A stretch of 20,000 nucleotides of DNA from an uncultured virus (IMG/VR IMGVR_UViG_3300049783_000823) (IMGVR_UViG_3300049783_000823), one strand, 5' to 3'; shown: positions 1-20,000, counted from the stretch's first letter. The notes: generated by a model not told the origin, from the sequence alone. Numbers and translations are program-made.

Positions 1-1
1 G

Positions 2-1012: not shown

Positions 1013-1051
1013 GGTTGAACATATTTATTTAAAAGGAAAAGGAGATTCAAG

Positions 1052-1433: not shown

Positions 1434-1434
1434 T

Positions 1435-3042: not shown

Positions 3043-3265
3043 TGTGTTAGTAGAAGTAAATGCTAATGGCGTAAAACCGCTCACAGGGGATCCTTACAGA
3101 TTAGGTGGGGAAAAGTCCACAGCGGCAGCCATTGCTTTGCATCCGACGTGTTCTGAGTGCGGACGAGAGAACCCTTATAATGGGTTAAACAGTAATGGTC
3201 AGCTAAAAGAATTCTGTGAAAGCGGTAGATGCTGTAGCTGCCAGATCTCAATATTTGGGAGATAA
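3035..3265 (+). CDS. Small putative zinc-binding protein
   Basis: Likely start is ATG 3035 (GAGGAG upstream); CSEC...EFCESGRCCSCQ cysteine motif. Confidence 0.6.
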   Translation: MHDVLVEVNANGVKPLTGDPYRLGGEKSTAAAIALHPTCSECGRENPYNGLNSNGQLKEFCESGRCCSCQISIFGR

Positions 3266-3267
3266 AT

Positions 3268-3900
3268 ATGAGTGTGCCTAAGTTCCCGCTAAGAGGAAAA
3301 GGTAAGATTAAATCTAAGAAGGCTTTCCTTCCTGACCTTCAAAATGAGCGTGTAAAACCTAACCAGATAACTAGCGTTTGGATAGACGAAGCAGGAGAGA
3401 TATCTGAAAGAAAACCCTCAGTATCATTAGAAGGGCAGGTCGGAAAGCGTGTTAACCGAAAGAAATATGACGATCTTCCTAACGGTCATTGGGAGTTCGA
3501 GGGCGATATGCGAAGCGGAAAAGCTGTTGGCTTCATATACGTCATTAAAGATCTCAGAAATAATATGCTGTATCTTGGAAAGAAGAGTTATGTAGGGGCG
3601 GGTAAGTTAAACAAAGGTGTAGAGTCAAACTGGCGGTGGTATATATCGTCATCTAAACTCTTAAGTGAATCAGTTAAGACAAACGGTAAAGAAAACTTCA
3701 AATTTTATGCTATAGAAGAGTATAGCTTTAAAGGTGGGCTAAGCTTTGCTGAGACATGGTCTCTCTGTAAGGTGGAAGCTCTGAACGAAAACAGCCGTTG
3801 GTATAATGGTCTGATTGGGAAGGTATCTTGGAAAGTTAAAGAACCTGTAACAGCTAGACACAGAAGGCGACTTCAACAGATAATAGATGGAGAGATATGA
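3268..3900 (+). CDS. GIY-YIG-like (Seg-type) nuclease with N-terminal extension
   Basis: GFIYVIKDLRNNMLYLGKK, WRWYISSS, a conserved E (AET) and WYNG resemble phage GIY-YIG/Seg-like proteins. Confidence 0.7.
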   Translation: MSVPKFPLRGKGKIKSKKAFLPDLQNERVKPNQITSVWIDEAGEISERKPSVSLEGQVGKRVNRKKYDDLPNGHWEFEGDMRSGKAVGFIYVIKDLRNNMLYLGKKSYVGAGKLNKGVESNWRWYISSSKLLSESVKTNGKENFKFYAIEEYSFKGGLSFAETWSLCKVEALNENSRWYNGLIGKVSWKVKEPVTARHRRRLQQIIDGEI

Positions 3901-4121
3901 AAACAGTATCAAGTATTTTAGTGATTATATTATTCGGATTAATTGGCTACAGGTCGTATCTGATATTAACAGCCGGAGTTCCGCTTGACTCAGCTGACTA
4001 CCTGGTCTTAGCTGCGGCTACCTACTTGCTTAACGCAATTGTAACAATATGGAATGACAGTGCTGCCAGCAAGATAGCAAATAAGACATTTAATATAGAT
4101 GAAAATAGCCCAAGGCATTAG
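3897..4121 (+). CDS. Small membrane protein (two predicted TM segments)
   Basis: Hydrophobic stretches ILVIILFGLIGY and YLVLAAATYLLNAIVTIW. Confidence 0.65.
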   Translation: MKTVSSILVIILFGLIGYRSYLILTAGVPLDSADYLVLAAATYLLNAIVTIWNDSAASKIANKTFNIDENSPRH

Positions 4122-5909
4122 ATGGGACGCATTGTAGAACATAACAAGCCCTGCATTTCGTGCACCAGTTCAGACGCGATGCAGATATATGAAGATGGAG
4201 GGGCTAAGTGTTATTCTTGCGGAAAGTCCTTCCACCACTCAAAAGTTGAAAAGGAAAATATGACATCACCTAGGGGGTTTAAAGTACCAAAGAAAAGAGG
4301 GCCATTAGACCCTGAAGATTTTGCTAAAGCTAAAACAGAAGTAGTGAAGGCGACACCGAAAGTATCTTGCGATGAGATCGAAGAGTTTGGAGTGCGTGGT
4401 TTTAAAGACAGGCTTGTCAAGAAGGCAACGAACGAATTCTATGGTGTCAAGGTAGGTTACGATTCAAATGGTCAGATAGATTCTCACTATTACCCTTACG
4501 GTAATGACAAAAAGCGTGGCTATAAAATCAGAGAGTTGCCTAAGACTTTCTCTTTCGTTGGCACATTCGGAGGTCTCTTTGGAAGAGAAAAGTTTTCAGC
4601 CGGAGGGAAGCGTCTCATCATAACGGAGGGAGAAGTTGATGCCCTTTCTGTTGCCCAAGCTTCTTTTGACAGGTATAATAAGTACTATCCTGTAGTCTCT
4701 CTGCCAAGCTCTTCTTGTTCCTCTGTGCTAATGGAAGAACGCGAATGGATTCGTAGTTTTCAAGAAGTAGTCCTATGGATGGATAACGATGAGGCGGGTA
4801 TCACGGCAAGAGATAAGGCCATAAAGATAATTGGCGCTGATAAGGTAAAAGTTGTAGAGATTGCAGAAAATGACGCGTCTGATGTCCTCACAAGCGGTGA
4901 AGATGGCAGCAAGCGAATAATGGAAGCGATATGGGATGCGCAGATGTTCAAGCCTGCTGGCATTATTGGCCAAACAGAGCTTTGGGATGCGTTGGTAAAC
5001 TACAACGAAATCAAGGCCATTCCGTATCCTGAATGTCTGACAGGGATTAACTCAAAGATAAAAGGGGCACGCTTGGGAGAGATTGCGCTCTTTATATCAG
5101 GGACAGGTAGTGGCAAGAGTACCATTGTTAGAGAAATAGGTCTTGAGTTTCTAAGGGCTACTGAAGATAAAATTGGTATAATTTCTTTAGAGGAAAGCCC
5201 AGGTGAAACTGCAAGATTGTTCTCAGGAATGGCTATCCATCGTAACCCTGCAGAAGAAGAAATACCTCTTGATGAGTTGAAGGTTGGCTTTGATAGTGTA
5301 TTCGGCGAAGACAGGGTTGTTGTTCTGGATCATCAAGGCTCCATAAAGGACGATAGCATTTTAGACCAGTTCGAGTACATGTGTCTCTCTGGCTGTAAAT
5401 ATTTATTCGTTGATCACATAACTATTTTAGTATCGGAAGGCGCTGATGGGCTGACAGGTAATGAGGCTATAGATAAGATTATGAATGACCTGCTGAGGCT
5501 GGCTAAGCGTCATACTGTTTGGATCGGCCTTATCTCTCATTTGAGAAAAGCAGAAACAGGTCGGAAAAGCTTTGAGGAGGGCAGGTTGCCATCTATAGAT
5601 GATATACGTGGCTCAGGTAGTATCAAGCAGGTCTCATTTGACATAATAGCCTTCGCTAGAAATATGACGGCTAGACAAGAGCGTGTAAGAAACAGGATTG
5701 AGATGGCAATTCTTAAATCCAGAACAACAGGTAAAACAGGGCCAGTTCTAGGGGCTGACTATAATGTAAAGACAGGTCGTCTTGTAGCAGCTCCGCCTGA
5801 CCTTGAAGATGATGAAGAAGCCTTTGGCGAGGAGAAGACGGAAACAGTAGTATACGAAGAAGCGTTATCCGAAGAAGATCTTATAAATAAATTCAAAAGA
5901 GACAAATAA
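4122..5909 (+). CDS. DNA primase-helicase (T7 gp4-like)
   Basis: N-terminal Zn ribbon (CISC...CYSC), TOPRIM motifs (IITEGEVDALS, MDND), DnaB-type Walker A SGTGSGKS, VDHITI, ISHLRK, DIRGSGSIKQ. Confidence 0.96.
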   Translation: MGRIVEHNKPCISCTSSDAMQIYEDGGAKCYSCGKSFHHSKVEKENMTSPRGFKVPKKRGPLDPEDFAKAKTEVVKATPKVSCDEIEEFGVRGFKDRLVKKATNEFYGVKVGYDSNGQIDSHYYPYGNDKKRGYKIRELPKTFSFVGTFGGLFGREKFSAGGKRLIITEGEVDALSVAQASFDRYNKYYPVVSLPSSSCSSVLMEEREWIRSFQEVVLWMDNDEAGITARDKAIKIIGADKVKVVEIAENDASDVLTSGEDGSKRIMEAIWDAQMFKPAGIIGQTELWDALVNYNEIKAIPYPECLTGINSKIKGARLGEIALFISGTGSGKSTIVREIGLEFLRATEDKIGIISLEESPGETARLFSGMAIHRNPAEEEIPLDELKVGFDSVFGEDRVVVLDHQGSIKDDSILDQFEYMCLSGCKYLFVDHITILVSEGADGLTGNEAIDKIMNDLLRLAKRHTVWIGLISHLRKAETGRKSFEEGRLPSIDDIRGSGSIKQVSFDIIAFARNMTARQERVRNRIEMAILKSRTTGKTGPVLGADYNVKTGRLVAAPPDLEDDEEAFGEEKTETVVYEEALSEEDLINKFKRDK

Positions 5910-7819
5910 TGACTGATAAAATAGAAACACCCTGGAGTTCCGTAGGTTACTTAACATACAAGAGAACCTATTCACGCCCCATTCCAGGGGAAGGCAGGAC
6001 AGAAGAATTCCCTGAGACCATTGACCGTGTAATTAAGAGCTGTAGAGAGCAGCTCAAAGTAGGTTTCACAGAAGAGGAGGAAGAGACGCTTCGTGGTTAC
6101 CTCTTAGAGCTTAAAGGATCAGTAGCCGGTAGATTCCTATGGCAGATGGGTACAGAGACAGTCGATCGAATCGGTCTTGCTAGCTTGCAAAATTGTGCAT
6201 TTACAGTTGTTGATGACCCTATCGTGCCGTTCACTTGGTGCATGGATATGTTAGCCCTAGGCAGCGGAGTCGGTTATAACATCCAACGGGAGCATGTCGA
6301 GAAGATTCCAGCCGTTCGAGAGTGGTTCGCCGCGCCTACCAGAGTGGACGATGGTGGGGCGGATTTCATAATTCCAGACTCTCGTGAGGGGTGGGTGCGT
6401 TTCTTAGCTAAGACGCTTAAAGCCGCCTTCCTATCGGAAAGGCAAGAAAAAGGATCTTTCACATATTCAACGCAAGTTATTCGTGGGAAAGGAACACCAA
6501 TCAAGGGATTCGGTGGTGTAGCAAGCGGGCCTGAAGATCTGGTGAAAGGTGTAGGCCAGATAAGCGCAATCCTAGAGAAAAGGAGAGGAAAGAAAATCAG
6601 ACCTATTGATGCCTTGGATATAATGAACATAATCGGTGCAATCATTGTAGCCGGTAACGTTCGTAGATCAGCTCAAATTGCCATAGGTGATGGTGATGAT
6701 ATTGAGTTCCTTCTTGCAAAACGGTGGGATCTAGGGCACATCCCTCCTTGGCGTGGCATGTCTAACAACAGCGTGGTGTGCTCAAATATCGAAGAACTTC
6801 ATGATTACTTTTGGGATGGGTATGAAGGAAAAGGAGAGCCGTACGGATTAATCAATCTCGATCTGTCCAGAAAAGAAGGTAGATCAGGTGAGACAGAATA
6901 TCCCGACCCTGAAGTCATGGGGTATAATCCGTGCGCTGAGCAATCTCTTGCGCCATATGAGACATGCTGTCTGGCTGAGATCTATTTGCCAAACATAGAC
7001 TCATTGGGCGAATTCCTTGATTTGCTGACATTGCTTTATAAAATAAATAAGCACTCTCTTACACTGCCTGCACATCATCCTGAGACTGCCGCTATTGTCC
7101 ATAAGAATATGCGAATGGGAATAGGTATGACAGGTATCATGCAAGCATCTGAAGAGCAGCTTAGTTGGTTGGATGAAGGTTATCGCTATCTTCGTGACTT
7201 TGACAACCGCTACTCTGAGCTGAAAGGCTTTGAAAGATCAATAAAGCTTACGACAGTAAAGCCTTCAGGCACTCTATCATTGTTGCCAGGTGTTACTCCG
7301 GGTGTTCATCCAGGGTACTCACAGTATATGATACGTCGTATATGTGTATCGGCGGAGCATCCTCTTATTGCCACATGTAAAGAGCATGGATATGAAATGG
7401 AATTCCAAAGAAGATTAGATGGTAGCGAAGATTACAATACATACGTTGTATCTTTTCCTTTCAGATACCCTGAAGGGACTATTCTTGCCAAAGACATGAC
7501 AGCCATAAAACAGCTGAAAACTGTTAAGCAGATGCAGAAAGTTTGGTCAGATAATAGCGTCAGCTGTACAGTCTACTATCGGAAAGAAGAGATACCTGAA
7601 ATAAAACAGTATCTTAAAGAAAACTATGCCAAGACACACAAGTCTTTATCATTCTTGCTACACAACGAGCACGGTTTCGACCAAGCGCCTTTTGAAGAAA
7701 TTACGGAGGAATTATACAATGAAATGACTAAATCTACCAGCACCATAACAGCTATTGCTGACCTTACAAGCTTAGGGTTAGAAGATGAATGTGCAAGCGG
7801 TGCTTGCCCTGTACGATAG
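5909..7819 (+). CDS. nrdJ: Class II (adenosylcobalamin-dependent, monomeric RTPR-type) ribonucleotide reductase
   Basis: TYKRTYSR, NCAF, GNVRRSA, YNPCAEQ (radical Cys), TTVKPSGT and C-terminal redox pair ECASGACPVR; no adjacent beta subunit gene. Confidence 0.9.
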   Translation: MTDKIETPWSSVGYLTYKRTYSRPIPGEGRTEEFPETIDRVIKSCREQLKVGFTEEEEETLRGYLLELKGSVAGRFLWQMGTETVDRIGLASLQNCAFTVVDDPIVPFTWCMDMLALGSGVGYNIQREHVEKIPAVREWFAAPTRVDDGGADFIIPDSREGWVRFLAKTLKAAFLSERQEKGSFTYSTQVIRGKGTPIKGFGGVASGPEDLVKGVGQISAILEKRRGKKIRPIDALDIMNIIGAIIVAGNVRRSAQIAIGDGDDIEFLLAKRWDLGHIPPWRGMSNNSVVCSNIEELHDYFWDGYEGKGEPYGLINLDLSRKEGRSGETEYPDPEVMGYNPCAEQSLAPYETCCLAEIYLPNIDSLGEFLDLLTLLYKINKHSLTLPAHHPETAAIVHKNMRMGIGMTGIMQASEEQLSWLDEGYRYLRDFDNRYSELKGFERSIKLTTVKPSGTLSLLPGVTPGVHPGYSQYMIRRICVSAEHPLIATCKEHGYEMEFQRRLDGSEDYNTYVVSFPFRYPEGTILAKDMTAIKQLKTVKQMQKVWSDNSVSCTVYYRKEEIPEIKQYLKENYAKTHKSLSFLLHNEHGFDQAPFEEITEELYNEMTKSTSTITAIADLTSLGLEDECASGACPVR

Positions 7820-7826
7820 CACCTAC

Positions 7827-7851
7827 GGCCCTCTGTAACGGAGGGCCTTTT
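7827..7851 (+). terminator. Rho-independent terminator
   Basis: GGCCCTC-tgtaacg-GAGGGCC followed by TTTT, directly after the RNR stop. Confidence 0.8.
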
Positions 7852-7867
7852 AATTGAGGAAAACAAA

Positions 7868-8137
7868 ATGAATGGAGATAGTGAGAGCAACGAAGAATTT
7901 TATAAAGTTGGTGACAAGTTCAAATGGGAGAACAAAAACTGGCCTTCAAAAGACTACAAGCCTGTGGTATATGTAATAGCTCGGGTGGATGCTGAAAGAG
8001 TGCTTATTCTTAACACTGAAACCTGGAACAGATGGTCTAACTCTGTGTTAACAGAGAGTAATACACGTATAACGGAAGAAGAGCTAACAGAAATCATGGG
8101 AGGGGCGCGTAATGAGTTCACAAAAATCGAAGGGTAA
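7868..8137 (+). CDS. Hypothetical protein
   Basis: GAGGA SD; 89-aa ORF. Confidence 0.7.
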   Translation: MNGDSESNEEFYKVGDKFKWENKNWPSKDYKPVVYVIARVDAERVLILNTETWNRWSNSVLTESNTRITEEELTEIMGGARNEFTKIEG

Positions 8138-8441
8138 TGTATCAGCAGAAGACCTCATAAAGGACATAGAGTTTAACGGAATACAGGTAAAGAGAGGTCT
8201 GACCCACATTGACAATATGCTGCAAAAGTTGCTTGAAGATTCGCCTCTAATGGGGTGTTTCCACCCTCAATCACCTGGGTTCTGTTTTTCCATATGGAGA
8301 GAGGATGGTGAGGTGGCTGATCGCGCTTATGTCGTTTTTGAAAAAGGAAAATGGAAACACCTTGATGAAGGAAACCAAAACCCAAGGAAAAGAGAAGTAC
8401 TTGAAATACTAACCGAATTAATAGGAGAAGAATATGTTTAA
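8112..8441 (+). CDS. Hypothetical protein
   Basis: GGAGG SD; overlaps both neighbours. Confidence 0.65.
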   Translation: MSSQKSKGNVSAEDLIKDIEFNGIQVKRGLTHIDNMLQKLLEDSPLMGCFHPQSPGFCFSIWREDGEVADRAYVVFEKGKWKHLDEGNQNPRKREVLEILTELIGEEYV

Positions 8442-9348
8442 ACCTTTACTTGCCCCAAATGACGACCCTTTAAGAAACCCTAAATTCTTCGACTTATTGA
8501 AGTATCCACTAATGGTATCACCAAAACTGGATGGAATACGTGCCGTTATGCGCAAAGACATATGCAGCTCGCGTACCAATAAAGAACTCCCTAACATCAA
8601 TTTGGGGGAGTTTGCTTTCAACCTGCGTGGGCTTGATGGTGAATTCATAGCAGGTGAAGTTACTGACCATGATGTTTACAATCGAACGCAAAGTGTTATC
8701 ATGTCAATCAACAAACCTACGGATGATATTACTTACTATGTATTTGATGTGGCGGACCCTGAGTTCGCTAATACTCCTTTTAAGACTCGTATTCAGATAG
8801 CGGAACGAGACGTGAGAGCAGCTAATCTTAAGCACCCAGGTCTCAAGGTTGAATTTGTTGAGCATAGCCTCGTTGAAACATATGAAGAGCTTATAGCTTA
8901 CGAAGAAGAGATGCTTGAGAAGGGGTTTGAAGGTATCATGCTAAGGGATCCTGAAGGGGTTTATAAACATGGCCGATCTACGATGCTGCAAGGGCATCTT
9001 ATAAAGTTGAAGCGGTTTCAAGATGATGAGGCTGAAGTTATTGGGTTCATCGAGCAGCAAACCAACAACAATCCTATTTTTGTAAATGAAGTAGGCGGAT
9101 CCTCGCGTTCAACTAAGAAAGACGGTCTAACACCAGCTGGTACTCTAGGGAAGCTGATTGTGAGCTACAATGATATGGATCTAGAAGTATCATGTGGAAC
9201 GCTCTCGCATGCTGATAGGAAGGTCATATGGAAAAACCAAGATGCCTTTTTAGGACAACATATAACATTCAGACATTTCTTGCATGGCGCTAAAGACAAG
9301 CCGAGGTTTCCGAGATTCGTTGGATGGCGCAACATGGAGCATATGTGA
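8434..9348 (+). CDS. ATP-dependent DNA ligase
   Basis: Motif I SPKLDGIR, LDGE, YYVFD, GFEGIMLR, KLKR and C-terminal PRFPRF. Confidence 0.95.
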   Translation: MFKPLLAPNDDPLRNPKFFDLLKYPLMVSPKLDGIRAVMRKDICSSRTNKELPNINLGEFAFNLRGLDGEFIAGEVTDHDVYNRTQSVIMSINKPTDDITYYVFDVADPEFANTPFKTRIQIAERDVRAANLKHPGLKVEFVEHSLVETYEELIAYEEEMLEKGFEGIMLRDPEGVYKHGRSTMLQGHLIKLKRFQDDEAEVIGFIEQQTNNNPIFVNEVGGSSRSTKKDGLTPAGTLGKLIVSYNDMDLEVSCGTLSHADRKVIWKNQDAFLGQHITFRHFLHGAKDKPRFPRFVGWRNMEHM

Positions 9349-9581
9349 TGGGTATACAGTTCACAGAAGTTAAGAGAGTGCGACCTAACCTTTCGATAGC
9401 CCGTAAAGTAGATACATCGGTTGCGTATGCCATGAGGGTGCTGACACCTACTAAGCTACAGATGATGAAATCTAATGTAGATATATTAGATTCAGTAATC
9501 CGCACTTCGAGAGATCCAGAAGCTGTCGAGCGAGCTAAAGAATCTAAACAAAATATAAAAGAACAAATGAAAGGAGCATAA
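9348..9581 (+). CDS. Hypothetical protein
   Basis: Likely start is ATG 9348, overlapping the ligase stop (TGATG), with GGAG upstream. Confidence 0.6.
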   Translation: MGIQFTEVKRVRPNLSIARKVDTSVAYAMRVLTPTKLQMMKSNVDILDSVIRTSRDPEAVERAKESKQNIKEQMKGA

Positions 9582-10385
9582 ATGACTACGTCATTAACAC
9601 CTGAATACTTAAGACTTGATAGCGCATTGTCTCGTTTCTTCGGAGACGGCTTCGGAGAAGACTATGAGTTTAGTCTTCAGGATCTTAAACGCGACTTTGC
9701 TGAAGCTGGCACAATGCTGTGCGGAGGTGCGATAACAAGCATTTATTCAGGTATGAAGATCAATGACCTCGACTTCTATGTAAGAGACGAAGCTGGTGCT
9801 GATAAGTTACGAAAGGCTATTCTAACGCGTGGATACGAAGAAGTTTGCATCTCGAGAAATGCAATGACATATAAGCGCAAGAGCGTCAACTCTAGAAAGG
9901 TATGGACCATTCAAATCATAACAAGATTTATGGGACCGCCTTCTGAAATATTTGACACTTTCGATTTCACAATAACTCAGGGAGCTTATGATTTCAATCT
10001 AGGTTTCACAGCTTGTGAAGACAACCATGCTATGCCTAAAGGGGGTTTCGTTCTAGGAACCAGATTCTTGGAGGACATAGCCAGAAGAAGATTAGTATAC
10101 CTCGGCGGGTCTAGATACCCCCTGTGCGCAATGTACAGAACAAAGAAGTATGAAGCAAAAGGCTATCGACTCCCAGGTAGTACCATAATGCATATCGGAA
10201 TATCTATAATGCGTCTTGAGCTAGAAACCTATGGTGATCTCAAGGAACAGCTAAACGGTATCGATACGCAATTTCTTGGTAATATCTTGGGTGACTACGA
10301 TGATATGCAAGAAGATGCTCCTCTAGATTATTCTTTATTTCTAGAAAGAGTTTTTGAAAAAATGACACCAGAACTATTCGATTAA
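9582..10385 (+). CDS. Pol-beta superfamily nucleotidyltransferase (tRNA nucleotidyltransferase / poly(A) polymerase-like head domain)
   Basis: CGGAITS...INDLDFY (GG...DxD) and FDFTITQGAYD (xDFT motif). Confidence 0.75.
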   Translation: MTTSLTPEYLRLDSALSRFFGDGFGEDYEFSLQDLKRDFAEAGTMLCGGAITSIYSGMKINDLDFYVRDEAGADKLRKAILTRGYEEVCISRNAMTYKRKSVNSRKVWTIQIITRFMGPPSEIFDTFDFTITQGAYDFNLGFTACEDNHAMPKGGFVLGTRFLEDIARRRLVYLGGSRYPLCAMYRTKKYEAKGYRLPGSTIMHIGISIMRLELETYGDLKEQLNGIDTQFLGNILGDYDDMQEDAPLDYSLFLERVFEKMTPELFD

Positions 10386-10403
10386 TATAATACAGGAAAA
10401 ATT

Positions 10404-10871
10404 ATGACAAGCTTTTTTAGAAACATTTGGGAAAAATTAGTGGGAAGACCTAAAGAGGTTCAAGCAGAATACGACAAACTTGTGGATACAACGCCTAGAA
10501 TCGCCTCCACAGGATATGGTGAAAGCGGTTATTTCACTGAAGATGATATCATATCCATAGCTGCAGCGAGCGGATCTGTCCGTTCTCGGCTGGAAAGAAA
10601 TTCCGAAAGAGTAATGTCTATTGTAAAGAAGAGATCAAGGATATCTGATCCCAACTTTGTTAAGTCTGGAAGGATATCAAGACAATGGAAGGTAGAAGGA
10701 AGTCTTCTTTGTTACAGGATGCCGGCAAGCGTCAATCCTAAGCGGCTTATTCTGATGGCTTTTGATCCAAACACCACGTCTACCTTTACAGATAGCGTGG
10801 GTGTAACTTTAGAAGCGCTTGGGAAAGTTATGCCTAAGTGTCTCGAAGAGACCGAACGTCACCCGAACTAG
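10404..10871 (+). CDS. Hypothetical protein
   Basis: 155-aa ORF with CAGGA SD. Confidence 0.7.
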   Translation: MTSFFRNIWEKLVGRPKEVQAEYDKLVDTTPRIASTGYGESGYFTEDDIISIAAASGSVRSRLERNSERVMSIVKKRSRISDPNFVKSGRISRQWKVEGSLLCYRMPASVNPKRLILMAFDPNTTSTFTDSVGVTLEALGKVMPKCLEETERHPN

Positions 10872-11056
10872 CCCCGTTTGGGGCACAGTTGGCAGACAGG
10901 ATGTTTTTCGCCAGCGAAGTGAGCTTCACCACGGCTCTCTCAAAACGCCTCAGGGTTTCGCTCTCTCAGCGTGCCTAGGCGTGTTTAACCCGTTAAATTA
11001 ACCCTGAAAGGGAAGTCGAATTAGCGGTATCACATCTCAGTTAGATTGGGAAATTG

Positions 11057-11080
11057 CCATAGGCAAATAATGGCCTATGG
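11057..11080. promoter_or_regulatory. Inverted repeat upstream of the 11131 gene (possible operator or mRNA leader hairpin)
   Basis: CCATAGGC-aaataatg-GCCTATGG, perfect 8-bp arms. Confidence 0.45.
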
Positions 11081-11130
11081 TATTACATTAAAAAGATTCA
11101 ATAATGAATCACAACATACAGGAATATAAC

Positions 11131-11745
11131 ATGTCTGAATTAAAAAAAGGTTTCGTAGTAGAAGGTCAATTTTTCGCAACTAAAGCAGACGCAGAAGAAT
11201 TTTTGCGTACACCGGTTGTCTTAGAAGCTTTGACAGTACTAACTTCTGACGAAGCAAGTTCGAAGTGGTTGTTAGAAAATCGCGATGCAATTCTTAGCAC
11301 GTATAAAGCAGGTCAAATCAGACGTGTATCAAAAGCTGAGCGTAAAGCATTGGTTAAAGCGTTAGATGAAGTTACCGAAGGTTTCTTAGCAGATAACCGT
11401 GATAGCATTATCACATCATTCCGCTGGCCTAAAGTAACCCGTGACACGGACTCAGCTGAAGCCCTTAAAACAGCTTTTGTTGAGCTATGCGAAGGTAACG
11501 AAGAACTAGCTGATTGGTTGCTTGCTACTAAAGCTGAATTGGAAGAAGCTTTCAATGCAGGCAAGCCTAAGCGTAAAGTTTCTCAGAAAGCTTTAGATGC
11601 TCTTGCCGAGTTCCGTAACTTGTCTAAAGAAGAGCAAGAAGCTCGTCGTGCAGAAAACCGTGCCAAGAAAGCAGCCGCTACAAAATCAGTTGAAGAAGCT
11701 ACAGAAGCTCCAGAAGCTGAAGAAGCAAAGGCTGACAAAAGCTAA
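11131..11745 (+). CDS. Hypothetical Ala/Glu/Lys-rich protein with internal repeats, probably highly expressed
   Basis: Likely start is ATG 11131 (CAGGA SD); codon usage rich in CGT/GCT/GAA; repeated W/F-L-x-x-N-R/K-D/A helical segments. Confidence 0.8.
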   Translation: MSELKKGFVVEGQFFATKADAEEFLRTPVVLEALTVLTSDEASSKWLLENRDAILSTYKAGQIRRVSKAERKALVKALDEVTEGFLADNRDSIITSFRWPKVTRDTDSAEALKTAFVELCEGNEELADWLLATKAELEEAFNAGKPKRKVSQKALDALAEFRNLSKEEQEARRAENRAKKAAATKSVEEATEAPEAEEAKADKS

Positions 11746-11759
11746 TTAATTAGCTAAAT

Positions 11760-12060
11760 GAGCATAACCGACAAGGTCGGTCTAGCTTAAAGTACTATAA
11801 AACCACTCGATGTCTATTTGAAGATCACTGCCTACTGTCTAGCCGTAGGGTGTCCCTTTGATTTGACTAGAGTGGTTTTATTTTTGAACATTATAGGTTA
11901 GCAGACCTTTTCTGCTAGGGTGGGCTTACTCTCCACCCGCGTTACACTTTGGTGTAATTAGACTGAATATTAATACCACCAATGCCTTTCTCCTTTATAG
12001 GCAGAAATCTCATCAGAGACGCTGTACTTGGGTGGTATGATTTCTTCAGTTATCATAATG
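11760..12060 (+). ncRNA. Candidate structured non-coding RNA / long 3' UTR
   Basis: No long ORF. Multiple stems: 11767-11781; ATAAAACCACTC/GAGTGGTTTTAT (11797-11881); 11899-11917; 11918-11938; 11942-11957; multibranch 11962-12050. Ends at a terminator. Confidence 0.5.
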
Positions 12061-12064
12061 GTAG

Positions 12065-12087
12065 CCCCTCTTAATTGAGGGGTTTTT
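12065..12087 (+). terminator. Rho-independent terminator
   Basis: CCCCTC-ttaatt-GAGGGG followed by TTTTT. Confidence 0.8.
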
Positions 12088-12107
12088 AATTGAAAGAGGA
12101 GACTATA

Positions 12108-12689
12108 ATGAAACGAAAAGGCATAGATACAGCTGCGTTAGCGAAGGCTTTCAGATTGAGAAGCTCCGCCGCAGATCTTGAGAAGGCAATGCTAGCCTTC
12201 AGCAAATTTAATCAAAACAAACAGAGGTTAGAAGAAATGAGCGAATCACTAAAAAACGATTACTTGGTAAGATTTTATGATAACGACAACGGCCCTGTGC
12301 CTGTTAAAGAAGATATCTATAGAGGCAGGTCAGCCACAGAAGTTATAAATTCCATCGAGAATAGCCAAATGTATGAAAACAGTCGTTTCTCTAGCTTTGC
12401 CGTCCGTAAGGTGGACGATATTGTAAGAATTAGAAACAGGACTCTGAGAAAGAGAGTGTTAATACGAAGGGTTGCGAATGGTGTTCCGTTTCAGATAATC
12501 GAAGAGAATGGGGGTCTAGGCAGTATGGCTATGAAAGTCAAATCCTCAAATACGACAAAAGATGCAAAAAACATTTTAGTGAACCTAAACACCAATACAT
12601 CCTTTAGGATTAGAGGCGATGATCGCGAATGCTATCTTATCAACTGGACGTCCCATTTTACTGGCTATGTACTTGAGGGAGATGAATAA
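12108..12689 (+). CDS. Hypothetical protein
   Basis: Likely start is ATG 12108 (GAGGAG SD). Confidence 0.7.
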   Translation: MKRKGIDTAALAKAFRLRSSAADLEKAMLAFSKFNQNKQRLEEMSESLKNDYLVRFYDNDNGPVPVKEDIYRGRSATEVINSIENSQMYENSRFSSFAVRKVDDIVRIRNRTLRKRVLIRRVANGVPFQIIEENGGLGSMAMKVKSSNTTKDAKNILVNLNTNTSFRIRGDDRECYLINWTSHFTGYVLEGDE

Positions 12690-14245: not shown

Positions 14246-14326
14246 CGAAGACGGAGTAAGACAATGAAAACAATATTCACAATCGAAGACGGAGTAAGAC
14301 AATGAAAACAATATTCACAATCGAAG
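14246..14326 (+). repeat. Exact 38-bp tandem duplication (2.1 copies) of a translation-initiation region
   Basis: CGAAGACGGAGTAAGACAATGAAAACAATATTCACAAT at 14246 and 14284, plus CGAAG at 14322. Confidence 0.95.
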
Positions 14327-14874
14327 GCCAAGTGATCAGAGCAGCTTTATTATGTGCGGCTAAGAATGACGCGAGACGTTATCTCAACGGTGTAATGGTC
14401 AATACAATAGATAATGTATTGGTTAGTACGAACGGACACGTGTTGTATAAGAATAAGATTTATGTCGATCGTGAGTGTAACTTAGAGAAAGAGTACATTT
14501 TAGAATCTTTTAAAGTACCAAGGTCAGTTCTTGAGGTCGTGATAACAATAGAAGACGATGCTAATGTTGCACTCGTTACAATGTATGACAAGAAGAAAAT
14601 TACGAACATGATTGAAGTTGATTTAATCGACGGTAGGTTCCCTGATTACAAAAGGATATTACCAGCACCCACTGATAAAGTTGAAATCAGTGAGTGTGGT
14701 TTCACGGGTGAGCATCTATCATTAGTTGATAAAGTGTTCCCCAAGAGTGTAGTGCGGTTCGACTTTAAATCTAACAGTCGTGTTATTGTTCAGGCTCAAG
14801 TTTACAGTAATAAAGAGTACATAATAAATAGAGATCGGGGTATGCTGTTGGTAGCGAACGCAAAGATTAAATAG
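14302..14874 (+). CDS. DNA polymerase III beta-clamp-like protein (truncated, central-domain homologue)
   Basis: AAKNDARRYLNGV, VSTNGHVL and LIDGRFPDYKRILP resemble DnaN DVRYYLNG / ATDGHRL / DGRFPDYRRVLP; only 190 aa. Confidence 0.8.
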   Translation: MKTIFTIEGQVIRAALLCAAKNDARRYLNGVMVNTIDNVLVSTNGHVLYKNKIYVDRECNLEKEYILESFKVPRSVLEVVITIEDDANVALVTMYDKKKITNMIEVDLIDGRFPDYKRILPAPTDKVEISECGFTGEHLSLVDKVFPKSVVRFDFKSNSRVIVQAQVYSNKEYIINRDRGMLLVANAKIK

Positions 14875-16284: not shown

Positions 16285-16581
16285 ATGGCAAGCCTAGACG
16301 AGCCTAATGCTATGCGCCTCATGGAAGACGCTCTTATGAAAGACTTGAAGAAAAGTCTAACAAATAGCCTTGTCAAGGAACTTATGAAGGAAGCGCAAGA
16401 GAAGTTCGAAAAGGAGGCACGCGCAACTGTGACGAAAAGGCTTGAAAATCTGACGTTAGAGACTGTATTGGCCTTCAGAAACCTTGCAAGGATGCGAGAT
16501 GAGGTTGAGGTCTATGTGAAGTGGAATGACGACAAGAAGAAGGCAATAAATGACAAACCGGCTAGCGATAAGCCTAAGTAA
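16285..16581 (+). CDS. Hypothetical helical protein
   Basis: 98-aa ORF directly after the upstream stop. Confidence 0.65.
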   Translation: MASLDEPNAMRLMEDALMKDLKKSLTNSLVKELMKEAQEKFEKEARATVTKRLENLTLETVLAFRNLARMRDEVEVYVKWNDDKKKAINDKPASDKPK

Positions 16582-16594
16582 ACAAGGAAATAAT

Positions 16595-16831
16595 ATGGAT
16601 TATAAATTAAAAACGAATGCGGTGATGGTCTCTGAATTGGAAGCAGGTGATTGCTTTATTGATGCCAGCGATCCACCACAGACAGCGCCTGTCTATATGG
16701 TTTTAAACAAGACGAGCGCTCTATATGACTCTAAATTCGAATTGGTAGACCTTCAGACAGGCCACCGTCATTTTCACAGTGACTTTGAAGTAAACAAAGT
16801 GTTGCCATCTTTAACTTTTGAAATAGCATAA
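16595..16831 (+). CDS. Hypothetical protein, paralogue of 16894..17139
   Basis: Likely start is ATG 16595 (AAGGA SD); MVSELEAGDCFI...VYMVL. Confidence 0.7.
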   Translation: MDYKLKTNAVMVSELEAGDCFIDASDPPQTAPVYMVLNKTSALYDSKFELVDLQTGHRHFHSDFEVNKVLPSLTFEIA

Positions 16832-16893
16832 AGCGTAAAGCATAAGGCAATAAATCTAGTACTATTTGATTAATACAACAAAAGGAGAAAGAT

Positions 16894-17139
16894 ATGATAT
16901 ACAACGTAACACAACCGATAAGGATTATGCTTGCAGACCTTGAGCCAGGTGAATGCTTCATTCTCGCATATGACACTGAGCATGAGCCTACGGTATACAT
17001 TCTATTAGCCAGTATAGAGTCGACACCTGAAGGTTCTTTCGATGTTGTTTCAATTGCAAACGGCGTACGTTATAATTGGTATGAGACAGAGGTTATACAT
17101 GTCGTTGGTGATGTTCAGTTCACGCAAGTATCACAGTAG
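16894..17139 (+). CDS. Hypothetical protein, paralogue of 16595..16831
   Basis: AAGGAG SD; MLADLEPGECFI...VYILL. Confidence 0.7.
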   Translation: MIYNVTQPIRIMLADLEPGECFILAYDTEHEPTVYILLASIESTPEGSFDVVSIANGVRYNWYETEVIHVVGDVQFTQVSQ

Positions 17140-17227
17140 GTTATTATGAAAACAAAACATGACATAGAAACATCAAAAGCTGTGGAACCGGTCTGGTTAG
17201 CCAGCCTATCATAGGATTAGATGATTT

Positions 17228-17425
17228 ATGACTAATTGGATTGATTCAGAAGATGAAGTAAAACCCGTTGTAGCTAGAACGGTGTTGGCGTATTGCCCTG
17301 ACTGGAACAATAGCGGGTATCAAGTGTGTTACTGGGACGGAAAGGTTTTTAGGTACGAAGAGCAACCTAATGACGATTTCCATACCTATGTGAACTCATG
17401 GGCGATATTTATGGAAGCCGATTAA
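17228..17425 (+). CDS. Small DUF551-like phage protein
   Basis: MTNWID...KP...VLAY...YWDG...VNSWA architecture. Confidence 0.55.
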   Translation: MTNWIDSEDEVKPVVARTVLAYCPDWNNSGYQVCYWDGKVFRYEEQPNDDFHTYVNSWAIFMEAD

Positions 17426-17428
17426 TGT

Positions 17429-17556
17429 ATATAACCCCTGGGGGGTAATTAGCCGCCTTTGGTGGCACAGAATTGGAGCAATGATGATGTCAAACGAAGC
17501 TGAGAAACAAGAAACCGACACAACAGTAGGCGGTCTGATTGACCCAGTTGTTATGT
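17429..17556 (-). repeat. attC-like site 1 (128 bp, long loop)
   Basis: Minus strand: R'' ACATAAC-AACTG-L'' GGT(C)AATC-AG(A)CCGCC...GGCGGCT-L' AATTACC-8-nt spacer-R' GTTATAT. Confidence 0.75.
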
Positions 17557-17783
17557 GCTGGACACCTGTATCAGAGAAGTTGCCTGATAACGGAAAGATG
17601 GTGCTTGTAACAATTAATACAGAAACACCTTGTAGTGGCGTATCTAGCTACACTCCCTGCGATGGGGGTCAGTGGTACAGATGGCAGGAGGCTGATGAAT
17701 ACAAAACAGATACTCCGTACTACAGTGACTATGATATGGAGATAACGCACTGGATGTATATGCCTGAAGCGTTTGGCACATAA
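17481..17783 (+). CDS. DUF551-family protein (cassette ORF) whose N-terminus is encoded inside attC site 1
   Basis: WTPVSEKLP...VLV...ITHWMYMPEA; its stop TAA is the TAA of the next TAAC. Confidence 0.8.
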   Translation: MMMSNEAEKQETDTTVGGLIDPVVMCWTPVSEKLPDNGKMVLVTINTETPCSGVSSYTPCDGGQWYRWQEADEYKTDTPYYSDYDMEITHWMYMPEAFGT

Positions 17784-17837
17784 CCTCGCAAATAAAGCGC
17801 GAGCTTTAGCGAGTCGAATTTAATGCCGTTGTTATAC
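17778..17837 (-). repeat. attC-like site 2 (60 bp)
   Basis: Minus strand: GTATAAC-AACGG-CAT(T)AAAT...CTTTATT-TGCGAG-GTTATGT. Confidence 0.85.
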
Positions 17838-17844
17838 GGCGAGG

Positions 17845-18153
17845 ATGAGAGGTATGGATTTATTATCTAGACCAAAAGATCAGGAACACAAGACAGTGGT
17901 GTCTTTAAGAACAGAGATGTTTAAAAGAGGTAGTGGGTTCGTTGCCGCTAAAGTTTTAACGACCCTAAAAAGAAAATCTACAGGGTTTGATATTTTAAAC
18001 GAAGGCGTATCTGAAGAGATTGAAGATCTGAGTAATATTGATGGGTTGTATACGCTCCCTGACGGTATTTATGAGCTGAGGTACGCTAACATAAGTAGGG
18101 ATTACGAATCAGGTCACTGGGAGTATTACGGCTACGAGTTGGTAGCCGTATAA
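17845..18153 (+). CDS. Hypothetical phage protein (cassette ORF)
   Basis: LPDGIYEL...NISRDYESG; stop lies in TAAC. Confidence 0.75.
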   Translation: MRGMDLLSRPKDQEHKTVVSLRTEMFKRGSGFVAAKVLTTLKRKSTGFDILNEGVSEEIEDLSNIDGLYTLPDGIYELRYANISRDYESGHWEYYGYELVAV

Positions 18154-18206
18154 CCCCTCGATTAACCGTCGAGTTTACGAGTCCGAGTTTAATGCCGTTT
18201 TTATAC
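18148..18206 (-). repeat. attC-like site 3 (59 bp, R'' AAC>AAA)
   Basis: Minus strand: GTATAAA-AACGG-CATTAAAC...GTTAATC-GAGGG-GTTATAC; related in sequence to site 2. Confidence 0.8.
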
Positions 18207-18236
18207 GGCTTAATAGTTAACAAACAGGATGATGAG

Positions 18237-18398
18237 ATGAAAACACGAGCAGAATATGGTTGTTACGAGAACTTTAAAAGGGAAAAAGAACGTGAGCTAC
18301 TTAGCGAATACAGAGCTAATCACGAGAATTTTAAAGATCAATATGATTACCCAAGCTTTGAAGACTTTTGCATAGGTAAGTGGCAATGGCTTAGGTAG
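18237..18398 (+). CDS. Hypothetical protein (cassette ORF)
   Basis: Likely start is ATG 18237 after CAGGATGA; the ORF-track start at 18192 lies inside the attC. Confidence 0.65.
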   Translation: MKTRAEYGCYENFKREKERELLSEYRANHENFKDQYDYPSFEDFCIGKWQWLR

Positions 18399-18400
18399 CC

Positions 18401-18479
18401 GCATAACCTTTGCGTTAAGCGGTTAAAACGGAGCGTAGCGGCCAACTGTTTTAATCCGACTTGCACGGCGTTGTTATGT
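18401..18479 (-). repeat. attC-like site 4 (79 bp)
   Basis: Minus strand: ACATAAC-AACGC-CGTGCAAG-TCGG(A)TTAAAAC...GTTTTAACCG-CTTAACG-CAAAG-GTTATGC. Confidence 0.85.
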
Positions 18480-18517
18480 GGCGTATTGAATATTAAATTA
18501 AAAAAGAGGATAGAAAA

Positions 18518-18670
18518 ATGGGCTTTAGTTTAGAGGGTTTATTTATACAGTTAGAGCAAGTAATCAATAATGGTGATATTAACGAGCAAGACCAGTTAGC
18601 CGAACTGATAGAGAAAATAGAGTGGTGGAAAAATTATGCTATTCAGTGCGGAAACATGAAAGACACATAA
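18518..18670 (+). CDS. Hypothetical 50-aa protein (cassette ORF, not in ORF track)
   Basis: GAGGA SD; MGFSLEGLFIQLEQ...WWKNYAIQCGNMKDT; stop lies in TAAC. Confidence 0.7.
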   Translation: MGFSLEGLFIQLEQVINNGDINEQDQLAELIEKIEWWKNYAIQCGNMKDT

Positions 18671-18748
18671 CGCTCTAGCTAAATTGGCGCTGGACGTAAA
18701 CAGAACAGGCGCGAAACTTTAACGCTCAATTTGAGCGTCTTGTTAGGC
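18665..18748 (-). repeat. attC-like site 5 (84 bp), closest match to canonical geometry
   Basis: Minus strand: GCCTAAC-AAGAC-GCT(C)AAAT-TG(A)GCG...CGCCA-ATTTAGC-TAGAGC-GTTATGT. Confidence 0.9.
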
Positions 18749-18767
18749 GCATTACGGAGAAATAATT

Positions 18768-18953
18768 ATGGAAACAAGGACAATACAGCAGCTAGCTAAT
18801 GACTTTAACTTAAAGTACTGCGAGGCTTGCAATACATCAAAGCCTGTCGATTGGGGGCAGGCGGCGCTTGCCGCGAGACAAATGGTAGACGCAATGGCCG
18901 AGAGAGGGCTTATTACTGATTCGTTACCAGAATTACAAGAACGCAGCACCTAA
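18768..18953 (+). CDS. Hypothetical protein (cassette ORF)
   Basis: GGAG SD; stop lies in TAAC. Confidence 0.7.
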   Translation: METRTIQQLANDFNLKYCEACNTSKPVDWGQAALAARQMVDAMAERGLITDSLPELQERST

Positions 18954-19007
18954 CGCCCGTTAATAAGCCGTGAGCGTCAGCGAGTCCAAACCACTGCTTT
19001 GTTATAT
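18948..19007 (-). repeat. attC-like site 6 (60 bp, degenerate L'' box)
   Basis: Plus strand ACCTAAC...GAGCGTCAGCGAGTCC...TTTGTTATAT; central motif shared with sites 2, 3 and 9. Confidence 0.7.
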
Positions 19008-19021
19008 TCAGGAGATAAAAC

Positions 19022-19186
19022 ATGACGAAGAAAGAATTAATTTTCGCTTTGCAAGATTTTGATGATGATGAAGTTATCGTAATTTCTGACGACGAGGGCG
19101 GATGGGATAATATCGAAGCAGTTGGCCGAATAGATGGAACAGCAGCGATATTTTTTGGCGGCGGTTCTCCCTTCAGTGATGAGTGA
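19022..19186 (+). CDS. Hypothetical acidic 54-aa protein (cassette ORF, not in ORF track)
   Basis: AGGAG SD; MTKKELIFALQDFDDDEVIVISDDEGGWDNI... Confidence 0.75.
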   Translation: MTKKELIFALQDFDDDEVIVISDDEGGWDNIEAVGRIDGTAAIFFGGGSPFSDE

Positions 19187-19273
19187 ATATAATCCCGTAA
19201 ATACGCGAGACGACTGGATGAACCGGTGCCCTTTGGTTACATAACCAAGAATTAACCAAAACGGAGATATAAA

Positions 19274-19597
19274 ATGAGATTATACATGATTAAAGTAGGT
19301 AAAAAGTGGGATAAAGGCGCTATTTACATAGGTCGTGGAAGTCCGCTAGGTAATCCCTTTGTAATGAGTAGTGAAATCGAAAGAGATCATGTATGTGATC
19401 TCTATGAGGACTGGCTGAAGGCTCGTATTGAAGAGCGTGATCCAAAGGTGATAGATGCCTTAAATCATATAGCCATTAAGTCTCGTAAAGAAGATGTCAC
19501 ATTAGGTTGCTTCTGTGCGCCTAAGCGGTGTCATGGAGACACTATCAAGCGCGTTATCGAAGATAAGCTAAAGTGCGGCGATAGCCGTCAATTTTGA
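19274..19597 (+). CDS. DUF4326-family protein
   Basis: IYIGRGSPLGNPF...R..VC..YE...LGCFCAPKRCHGD. Confidence 0.85.
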   Translation: MRLYMIKVGKKWDKGAIYIGRGSPLGNPFVMSSEIERDHVCDLYEDWLKARIEERDPKVIDALNHIAIKSRKEDVTLGCFCAPKRCHGDTIKRVIEDKLKCGDSRQF

Positions 19598-19611
19598 GCG
19601 CCTTGTTATTA
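19567..19611 (-). repeat. Truncated attC-like site 8 (R' lost), overlapping the 3' end of the DUF4326 gene
   Basis: Minus strand: TAATAAC-AAGGC-GCT(C)AAAA-TTG(A)CGGC-TATC-GCCGCA-CTTTAGC, with no GTT after the spacer. Confidence 0.7.
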
Positions 19612-19624
19612 TGCGCTGGGAGGT

Positions 19625-19831
19625 GTGAGAATGATTAACGTACCAAGATACACTGCATTAGAACTAGATACAGCACAAATCGTTGAGGATTACTATTACC
19701 TAGAAAACGGCTACTGGATGAGTAATGGCAAGCCAGACTTAAACCAGCCAGTCGAGCGCCACTACATTGTTGATGTTGATGGTAGGCACAGAGAGATTGC
19801 TGAAAATACATTAGACGGATTAGGGGTATAA
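19625..19831 (+). CDS. Hypothetical protein (cassette ORF)
   Basis: GGGAGG SD, start GTG 19625 or ATG 19631; stop lies in TAAC. Confidence 0.7.
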   Translation: MRMINVPRYTALELDTAQIVEDYYYLENGYWMSNGKPDLNQPVERHYIVDVDGRHREIAENTLDGLGV

Positions 19832-19886
19832 CCTCGCAAATAAAGCGCGAGCTTTAGCGAGTCGATTTTAACTTGCCTTGTTAGGC
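19826..19886 (-). repeat. attC-like site 9 (61 bp), near copy of site 2
   Basis: 19828-19865 is identical to 17780-17817 (38 bp); ends CTTGTTAGGC. Confidence 0.85.
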
Positions 19887-19907
19887 GGGAACGAACAGGA
19901 GAGATTG

Positions 19908-20000
19908 ATGGAACACTTAAGAGTTAACAAGCATTGTGATTGCACACACAAAATTACATGGTTTGCTGAGAATGTAGAAAACTGTGTTATTGATAGGGAG
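19908..20000 (+). CDS. Next cassette ORF, truncated by the window end
   Basis: CAGGAGA SD, then MEHLRVNKHCDCTHK..., open to the window end. Confidence 0.6.
   Translation, partial: MEHLRVNKHCDCTHKITWFAENVENCVIDRE

Follow-up and report, generated by a model that had tools for sequence, protein, structure and literature searches.

A cluster of attC sites in a marine phage genome fragment with polarity antisense to its genes

Clusters of attC sites lacking an integrase (CALINs) have been reported in virulent phages (Qi et al. 2023, PMC9892861). Phage attC sites are known from this one paper, whose passages on them treat them as ordinary cassette arrays (PMC9892861). Two sites of Pseudoalteromonas phage PH101, attC1 and attC2, recombined with attI1 under IntI1 at G|TT, their bottom strands performing better than the top strands; the passages on PH101 call its cassettes typical of bacterial arrays and are silent on an antisense layout (PMC9892861). 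A literature search yielded no paper describing a reversed polarity between genes and attC sites. Here, we analyzed a stretch of 20,000 nucleotides (nt) from an uncultured virus (IMG/VR IMGVR_UViG_3300049783_000823), referred to as the window, in which small genes alternate with attC sites between 17.4 and 20 kb. This array is a CALIN: its five model-supported sites lie in a stretch of 2.1 kb, and the 17 kb ahead of them contain no integrase. The polarity of its attC sites lies on the minus strand, antisense to every gene of the array. As CALINs are already known from phages, the reversed gene polarity is a variant of them.

Site polarity was determined against three reference sets of attC sites: the chromosomal-integron fragment of Vibrio phage Va_90-11-286_p16 (intI at 27091–28053 on the minus strand, array on the plus strand), the integron and the CALIN of Shewanella phage M16-3, and class 1 and class 2 arrays of four plasmids, oriented by intI and annotated resistance cassettes. 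On their top strand, the reference sites start with xxxTAAC (mostly followed by AA) and end in ...GTTAxxx, and constrained folds place all bulges on the 5' (R''-L'') arm. A covariance model, termed R1, was built on 20 sites that aligned cleanly at both ends and whose polarity was fixed by intI or by annotated cassette genes. Its structure comprises 10 base pairs (bp), representing the R box and two 3-bp L-box helices that flank an extrahelical column. As a control, R1 found 4/6 held-out class 1 attCs, each on the correct strand (aadA1 twice with 30.3 and 29.9 bits, catB3 with 29.4 bits and aadB with 18.3 bits); the two that escaped detection, from blaOXA-1 and aac(6')-Ib, are of the TAACCC type.

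The model was run on both strands of the whole window with filters off and gave 14 matches at E ≤ 10. The top five all fall in the array and all on the minus strand, with scores of 27.7, 20.6, 18.6, 17.1 and 16.6 bits (E between 2e-4 and 0.05 over 40 kb), while the sixth-best match anywhere in the window reached 9.2 bits. At the same five places, the plus strand gave only partial matches of about 2.9–5.6 bits (R1 on 17400–20000 alone). Because the held-out controls scored 18.3–30.3 bits, the window scores are within the range of true attCs unseen by R1. The sites of the array are as follows:

17429..17556, minus strand: S0, a long, weak attC-like site (R1 8.9 bits)
17778..17837, minus strand: S1, attC-type site (18.6 bits on minus versus 3.3 on plus; repeat families D1 and D3)
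18148..18206, minus strand: S2, degenerate attC-type site with R'' TAAAAA in place of TAACAA (3.0 bits on minus)
18401..18479, minus strand: S3, attC-type site and best folder of the array (16.6 bits on minus versus 5.5, partial, on plus)
18665..18748, minus strand: S4, textbook attC geometry (27.7 bits on minus versus 2.9, partial, on plus)
18948..19007, minus strand: S5, attC-type ends with the loop motif GGACTCGCTGACGCTC and no canonical L box (17.1 bits on minus versus 5.6, partial, on plus)
19187..19250: a degenerate remnant with core-like ends only
19561..19611, minus strand: S7, degenerate attC-type site inside the 3' end of ORF7 (7.9 bits on minus)
19826..19886, minus strand: S8, attC-type site (20.6 bits on minus versus 4.9, partial, on plus; repeat family D1)

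R1 gave no match at the remnant 19187–19250. Polarity was also assessed with a sequence-independent geometry test, in which Watson-Crick pairs were counted in the canonical L box (5-nt spacer, 3 bp, one bulged base and 4 bp, against a 4–6-nt spacer on the other arm) and in its mirror image. In bona fide sites, the true top strand won in 33/33 cases (5–7 versus 3–5 pairs, with a maximum of 7). In the window, the minus strand beat the plus strand in six of seven sites (S4 7 versus 5, S3 6 versus 3, S8 6 versus 3, S1 5 versus 4, S2 5 versus 4, S5 2 versus 1), S7 being tied at 1 versus 1. The minus reading of S3 places every bulge on the 5' arm. On the same strand, S4 reads GCCTAAC-AAGAC-GCT(C)AAATTG(A)GCG ... 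CGCCAATTT-AGC-TAGAGC-GTTATGT and has the layout of the aadA1 attC, namely R'', 5 nt, 3 bp, a bulged C, 6 bp, a bulged A and a 6-nt spacer before R'. An initial interpretation made from the DNA alone (the sequence-only reading) had placed the asymmetric attC features on the minus strand, antisense to the open reading frames (ORFs), and had used S4, its site 5, as the example. Both points hold: the model scored higher on the minus strand at all five strong sites, the bulges lie on the expected arm, and S4 forms 7/7 pairs. S8 has the layout of a Shewanella site (AAG-T-TAAA versus AAG-T-CAGC), and the S5 loop motif is common to Shewanella attC sites with the same polarity.

Read on the minus strand, the R'' (RYYYAAC) and R' (GTTRRRY) cores are GCCTAAC...GTTATGT in S4, ACATAAC...GTTATGC in S3, GCCTAAC...GTTATAC in S8, GTATAAC...GTTATGT in S1 and ATATAAC...GTTAGGT in S5; these five sites have inverted cores at their ends and are also those that match the attC model. 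Degenerate cores occur in S2 (TAAAAA) and S7 (CTTATCT). Except in S5 and S7, a 5-nt spacer separates R'' from the L box, the R''-L'' arm carries an extrahelical base, and a 5–6-nt spacer precedes R'. The repeat families define S1 as a mosaic, its R''-L'' arm resembling S2 and the remainder S8; over 44 nt, the bodies of S8 and S1 are 98% identical. The motif TTGTTA is found 28 times in the window compared to 14.5 ± 3.6 times in shuffled sequences. On the plus strand, seven copies form the right ends of sites (17548, 17829, 18471, 18740, 18999, 19603 and 19878), exactly the number of sites that had been described as ending in this motif, and an eighth (18260) lies within an ORF. Small hairpins centred on TTGTTA are present upstream of most array genes.

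The genes of the array, all on the plus strand, are:

17481..17783, plus strand: ORF1, DUF551 protein (Pfam PF04448, E 1.2e-7); stop TAA in R' of S1
17845..18153, plus strand: ORF2, likely start ATG at 17854; stop TAA in R' of S2 (positions 4–6)
18192..18398, plus strand: ORF3, likely start ATG at 18237; stop TAG 6 nt ahead of TAAC
18518..18670, plus strand: ORF4, 50 amino acids (aa), upstream ribosome-binding site (RBS) GAGG; stop TAA in R' of S4
18768..18953, plus strand: ORF5, 61 aa; stop TAA in R' of S5
19022..19186, plus strand: ORF6, 54 aa, followed by the remnant 19187–19250
19274..19597, plus strand: ORF7, DUF4326 protein of 107 aa (Pfam PF14216, E 1.9e-19, residues 9–92), running into S7
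19625..19831, plus strand: ORF8, 68 aa; stop TAA in R' of S8
19909..20000, plus strand: ORF9, open at the window end; its module begins at about 19875–19878, and the full ORF is found at positions 31–354 of the viral contig L033

That the plus strand is the coding strand is supported by the Pfam assignments of ORF1 and ORF7, by protein homologs of ORF1, ORF2 and ORF8, by Shine-Dalgarno motifs and by 20 kb of co-oriented phage genes. In agreement with the sequence-only reading, five ORFs (ending at 17783, 18153, 18670, 18953 and 19831) stop at a TAA that corresponds to site positions 4–6, the complement of the R' core. The canonical cassette order, in which an ORF is followed by the top strand of its attC (a typical, not a strictly defining feature), is thus not seen, with ORFs on the plus and sites on the minus strand. 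Neither does the window contain a complete integron, that is, intI with an adjacent attI and the cassette promoter Pc. A scan for promoters and terminators gave seven promoter-like sites, where 7.6 were expected, and six terminator-like sites, none of them at attC sites.

Two of the genes are partly made of site sequence. The R'' core of S0 (17550–17556) falls within ORF1, and S0 supplies the RBS, the start codon and a 23-aa head of this gene. The join of these first 23 residues to the DUF551 body lies at GTT ATG of the R'' core. An ORF1 homolog with 86% identity, in the phage contig L009, has an unrelated head at the same GTT ATG junction (1755–1795), and a seawater contig carries the head part alone. 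ORF7 reads through the degenerate S7, so that its final ~15 residues are site-encoded; the Pfam match ends at residue 92 of 107.

The same polarity is present in PH101. R1 detected four sites in this phage with 31–37.7 bits, all on the plus strand, and 14/14 annotated genes of the region are on the minus strand. Two of these sites are identical to sites tested experimentally, and the bottom strands that Table S3 lists correspond to the R1 polarity (PMC9892861). Because the sites are on the plus strand (bottom strand minus) and the genes on the minus strand, the experimentally recombinogenic strand of PH101 is the gene strand; the published PH101 data already hold the reversed pattern. For the window, a recombinogenic strand equal to the mRNA-like strand, as had been proposed, would follow from the minus polarity of the sites, and the better-recombining strand of PH101 offers an analogy. 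Of five further phages from the tables of Qi et al., only Shewanella phage 3/49 yielded an R1 match, a single weak one of 15.1 bits. Even with filters off, there was no match at the two published sites of phage P12002L, which means that R1 misses some attC types, and no polarity statistics were drawn from the phages of these tables searched with R1.

Next, we compared the array with other viral contigs. A 55-kb contig with 47% G+C (G002) encodes a homolog of ORF2 with 70% aa identity (9543–9842 of the segment L016). ORF2 is the sole gene common to both: a tblastn search with 41 ORFs of the window returned a single hit, and blastn with the entire window a single place. In G002, the gene also lies between two minus-strand sites with the same flanking cores, TTGTTATACGGC ... 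GCCGTATAA. The array around it comprises 15 R1 matches at E ≤ 1 among the 16 listed, all on the minus strand between plus-strand ORFs, and in the geometry test the minus strand won at 12/15 sites, with one tie and two reversed. ORF9 is found at 99% identity in four further viral contigs (L031–L034). The sequence-only reading had placed any attI to the right of the window; in L033, the sequence to the right of ORF9 contains five more minus-strand sites, an A+T-rich gap and then the genes for terminase (small and large), portal and capsid. Two gene blocks diverge in each of L032 and L034, and where the genes change direction the sites change polarity with them; both contigs also encode RecT. L032 carries an N6/N4 DNA methylase gene (3253–4008, minus strand) that is bounded exactly by two reversed attC sites (3201–4092), with a second methylase nearby; the methylases of this contig represent counter-restriction cargo in reversed cassettes.

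A polarity census was based on a crude ORF-based call per site, for which ORFs of ≥45 aa up to 250 nt away on either side were considered. Among 33 phage sites (window, L016 and L031–L034), 27 were antisense, four unclear and two sense, and the stop codon of the antisense ORF lay within R' at 26 of the 33. The 33 bacterial-type sites were sense in 24 cases, unclear in seven and antisense in two.

Searches for further relatives returned little. Exact-pattern scans of viral contigs for the S1/S8 body and for stretches of ORF3 and ORF1 gave 0 hits. In metagenome scans, the ORF2 alignment found 0 relatives and the 25-nt R''-hairpin module 0 hits, and relatives of ORF5 and ORF8 in the contigs L020–L022 showed no attC match. 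In L009 (1715–2290) and L021 (1460–2180), small genes are separated by other short direct repeats (GGCACATAACACCAACCTAAACGACAACGGGAG and CTACATCAA, respectively) that start at a TAAC stop, with no attC. A genome scan with a 16-mer of the loop motif gave 121 stretches, mostly in high-G+C genomes, which is the chance level at that length and allows no inference of a host. One contig of Candidatus Oceanisphaera carries two of these 16-mer matches (L098 and L099) 1.1 kb apart, the only such contig among the matches listed, and may represent a genuine attC array with this type of loop; each of the remaining matches listed falls on a different contig, mostly of high-G+C genomes.

Contigs of four metagenome runs were aligned to window positions 16500–20000; no absence is concluded from parts that X5 and X6 leave uncovered. 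The contigs of two ice-metagenome runs (X3 and X4) are identical to the window and break at the repeated S1/S8 body. Single modules, at about 96% identity, are found in the seawater run X6, which belongs to another study. One of its contigs (record 22) covers 17443–17784 with ORF1 and loses the match just past TAAC, continuing with GCTTTAGTTAAACAGG..., which resembles a site body of L033. Another (record 23) covers 17443–17554 only and ends at the TTGTTAT inside ORF1. A third (record 25) covers 18177–18409, that is, the right 33 nt of S2, ORF3 and TAACCT, after which it is unlike the window. Allowing for a shared C and chance identities, the right-hand module ends (17784, 18407–18409 and 18668) fall at the predicted TAA|C. 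Site bodies and genes are also found in varying combinations. The sequence ahead of ORF9 is S8 in the window and an S1-like body in L031; in L032 and L034 it is only GCCTTGTTAGGC, which comes straight after the stop of another gene. An S1-type body is joined at G|TTA to ORF2 in the window and to ORF9 in L031, and the S4-like body of L033 (90.8% identical) lacks R'' and has other ORFs on either side, the preceding one differing from that in the window.

These contigs show a modular exchange of single genes with junctions at R-box cores. The sequence-only reading had proposed a unit composed of attC body, gene and TAA, and had suggested examining which body travels with a gene. The right end of this unit stands, since modules end at TAA|C; its left end does not, as ORF1 and ORF3 are accompanied by no more than the right part of the site ahead of them, and the three contexts of ORF9, the S1-type body ahead of ORF2 or ORF9 and the S4-like body in L033 also separate whole bodies from genes. 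Linkage of a gene to its downstream body, which would have argued for the ordinary orientation, was not found, because the downstream body was unlinked in 2/2 informative cases, where part of the upstream site was linked. Neither whole-body linkage nor IntI as the only agent is shown by these data. Beside these modules, a 34-nt unit (18729–18762), consisting of a small hairpin with TTGTTA in its loop followed by GGAG, is present in two other runs with different DNA on both sides.

The sites look able to be used by an integron integrase supplied by the host. The probability of the canonical fold (pfold) is 0.41 for S3, comparable to class 1 sites (0.14–0.7). Regarding strand availability, replication forks of T7-type phages move in the direction of transcription. 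The GC skew of the window is positive in 10/10 2-kb bins, which fits forks co-directional with transcription, without proving them. In bacteria, a bottom strand on the lagging-strand template leads to more folding and recombination or excision; 25/30 chromosomal integrons have the opposite arrangement, with the bottom strand not on that template, and inversion of the V. cholerae array raised excision from <7e-5 to 3e-2, according to the passages on this topic in two reports (PMC5371416, PMC13108822).

Taken together, the region from 17.4 to 20 kb is a genuine attC cluster with one-gene modules; the sites and their reversed polarity, the recurrence of this layout in unrelated phages and the exchange of single genes are established, and we consider it probable that the cluster is recombined in trans by a host integrase. 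In this layout, a gene ends in a TAA complementary to the R' core, and its RBS follows the R'' core of the site ahead. The integrase would come from an integron of the host, for which a marine gammaproteobacterium is the likely candidate. The coding strand would be the recombinogenic bottom strand and could thus become single-stranded as the non-template strand during transcription; with forks running along with transcription, it would also be the lagging-strand template. Such exposure would favour folding and a rapid turnover of cassettes during infection, and homologous recombination between similar sites could generate the junctions within sites. Both the acting recombinase and the selective reason for the reversed polarity are what we infer here; the latter may be that reversal maximises turnover in the phage while the genes stay co-directional. 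Cassettes of this kind would be silent from Pc if they entered a host integron. A more tentative idea, possible yet on balance doubtful, is that many phages of integron-bearing bacteria keep a mirror-image cassette pool, in which exposure of the coding strand as single-stranded DNA, through transcription and lagging-strand synthesis, hijacks the host integrase for a fast shuffling of accessory genes during infection, and whose cassettes are silent if captured by a bacterial integron.

A number of observations weigh against recombination of these sites by a host integrase or against reversal as a general feature. Reversal is not universal among phages: the two tested sites of TJE1 are sense to its genes, and in P12002L the active attC2 is sense to the methylase gp35, the inactive attC1 being antisense to gp36. 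R1 is a model built for this analysis and not that of IntegronFinder, and S5 and S7 are without a canonical L box. Transcription alone can yield a positive GC skew. The pfold is low for S2 (6e-3), S4 (3e-4) and S1, S5 and S8 (≤2e-6; S1 2e-6, S5 2e-9), and in unconstrained folds local hairpins are favoured over the attC fold for S1, S4, S5 and S8; PH101 attC1 has a pfold of 3e-5, though it is recombination-proficient. No integrase or attI was found in the window (none among the window ORFs by Pfam), and neither PF00589 (tyrosine recombinases) nor TIGR02249 matched in G001, an IMG/VR fragment overlapping the window, or in G002. Pfam assigned no integrase among 40/44 ORFs of at least 110 aa in L032–L034; for L033 this covers the ORFs of that size in 10 kb, with one minus-strand ORF left out. 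The phage contigs L009 and L021, which have no attC sites, carry homologs of ORF1 and ORF8, respectively (67% identity for ORF8), and the window and G002 show no conservation of the site bodies on either side of ORF2 (ranks 13 and 15 of 23). Finally, junctions inside sites (left ends at 17443 and 18177; the S1/S2/S8 mosaic) and junctions at G|TTA, on the R'' side, are unlike a bottom-strand exchange by IntI. Bottom-strand recombination by IntI does not suffice to explain an exchange that involves both R-box cores and the interior of sites. Candidates for an additional process are top-strand events, which occurred at lower frequency in the published assay (PMC9892861), and homologous recombination between similar sites.

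Much of this would also be expected if the sites were attC-like in form only and served as hot spots for homologous or microhomology recombination of the phage (RecT/Erf type, or template switching at hairpins), perhaps with a role as RNA-level punctuation, so that their polarity would be set by the function of mRNA hairpins and no integrase would be involved. RecT is encoded by L032 and L034, no integrase was found on any contig scanned, pfold is low in 4/6 window sites, and the junctions at both cores and within sites, the 34-nt R''-hairpin and Shine-Dalgarno module in different surroundings and the homologous ORFs between unrelated short repeats of other phages all fit such hot spots. We nevertheless regard this explanation as rather unlikely, since scores and geometry equal those of true attCs, the arms pair across the two site halves, which would be needless for independent half-elements, and there is no terminator-like or promoter-like excess at the sites. 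Moreover, in PH101, IntI1 acted at G|TT on sites that share their type and polarity with those of the window (PMC9892861).

A passive origin, in which a block of a bacterial chromosomal integron was captured once, as in Vibrio phage Va_90-11-286_p16, and is now decaying, would account for the degenerate elements S2, S5, S7 and 19187–19250, and integron fragments are known in phages (PMC9892861). It appears highly improbable, as the ORFs of the captured Vibrio and Shewanella blocks are sense to attC at 18/25 sites (two antisense), whereas here all ORFs are antisense to the sites and co-oriented with 20 kb of phage genes. The genes are also of phage type (DUF551, DUF4326), single modules are common to unrelated phages, and in L032 and L034 the polarity flips with gene direction. 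The least credible explanation is the ordinary orientation, with sites read on the plus strand and each gene followed by its own attC. The plus strand does have the look of normal cassettes (an ORF, then xxxTAAC ... GTTAxxx), and complementary cores flanking ORFs fit both orientations, but this orientation is contradicted by plus-strand scores of ≤5.6 bits against 16.6–27.7 bits on the minus strand, by bulges on the wrong arm and by the downstream body being unlinked to the gene in 2/2 cases. We retain the attC cluster of reversed gene polarity, recombined in trans, as the most probable reading.

The window as a whole is part of a lytic-type marine phage with no integrase in view, and every sizeable ORF of its 20 kb is on the plus strand. 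It encodes a family A DNA polymerase, a 5'-3' exonuclease, a SegE-like GIY-YIG endonuclease and a T7-type primase-helicase, as well as a class II ribonucleotide reductase, an ATP-dependent ligase, a DHH phosphoesterase and a clamp-like protein. The closest cultured relatives of the primase-helicase are all from marine phages (Roseobacter phage CRP-7 with 50%, DSS3_VP1 with 45% and Pelagibacter phage Kolga with 41%). Positions 1–12359 are identical to the fragment G001, which stops at that point. Beyond 17.2 kb, the genes are small (50–107 aa) and the spacers are imperfect palindromes of 60–85 nt. Megablast of 16800–20000 against GenBank phages gave no match, and no Rfam family reached its gathering score in the window, matches in 17300–20000 being at chance level only.

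Some features elsewhere in the window deserve mention. The SegE-like GIY-YIG homing endonuclease gene (3268–3900) lies between the exonuclease and primase-helicase genes. Two long non-coding gaps of the replication module (10871–11104 and 11745–12090) form strong DNA folds (-39 and -56 kcal/mol) and could be an origin or promoter region; an origin there would bear on the fork direction in the array. A perfect 38-nt tandem duplication (14246–14321, family D4) copies the RBS and first codons of the clamp-like ORF 14302–14874.

If a class of phage arrays followed the reversed polarity as a rule, the cassette pools of phages and bacteria would be functionally separated, each silent in the context of the other. 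The strand choice of the integrase would then be a design principle exploited by phages, and the rapid mosaicism of phage accessory regions, including methylases and other counter-defence genes, would have a testable site-specific mechanism.

Compared with known systems, the window is closest to the PH101 array, with which it shares the same short attC type between small genes, a lytic marine phage without integrase and the same polarity between genes and attC sites; the two have no common ORF, and the window adds the exchange of single modules between unrelated phages. Classical cassettes (class 1 aadA1, aadB and catB3; chromosomal cassettes of Vibrio and Shewanella) share with the window the R''/R' cores, 5-nt and 5–6-nt spacers, an L box with the extrahelical base on the R'' arm, a length of 60–84 nt and a stop codon inside the R-box TAAC. 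Unlike in these cassettes, the genes of the window are on the other strand, the stop codon uses the complement of R' instead of R'', the site lies ahead of the gene, there is no intI, attI or Pc, and the folds are weaker and A+T-rich. In T4-type phages, the 'mobile regulatory cassettes' known as PeSLs are intergenic stem-loops that flank small accessory genes and mark shuffling junctions in plastic regions; they are units of a promoter and a stem-loop with no attC architecture. The elements of the window differ from them in lacking a promoter-like excess and in matching the attC model. Many own-promoter cassettes of sedentary chromosomal integrons, such as those for toxin-antitoxin systems, are inverted. 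Expression independent of Pc is what such cassettes, exemplified by the toxin-antitoxin cassettes in the passages of PMC13108822, have in common with the window. Own-promoter cassettes of bacteria, however, form a minority within sense arrays, whereas antisense is the rule in the surveyed phage arrays (27/33 sites).

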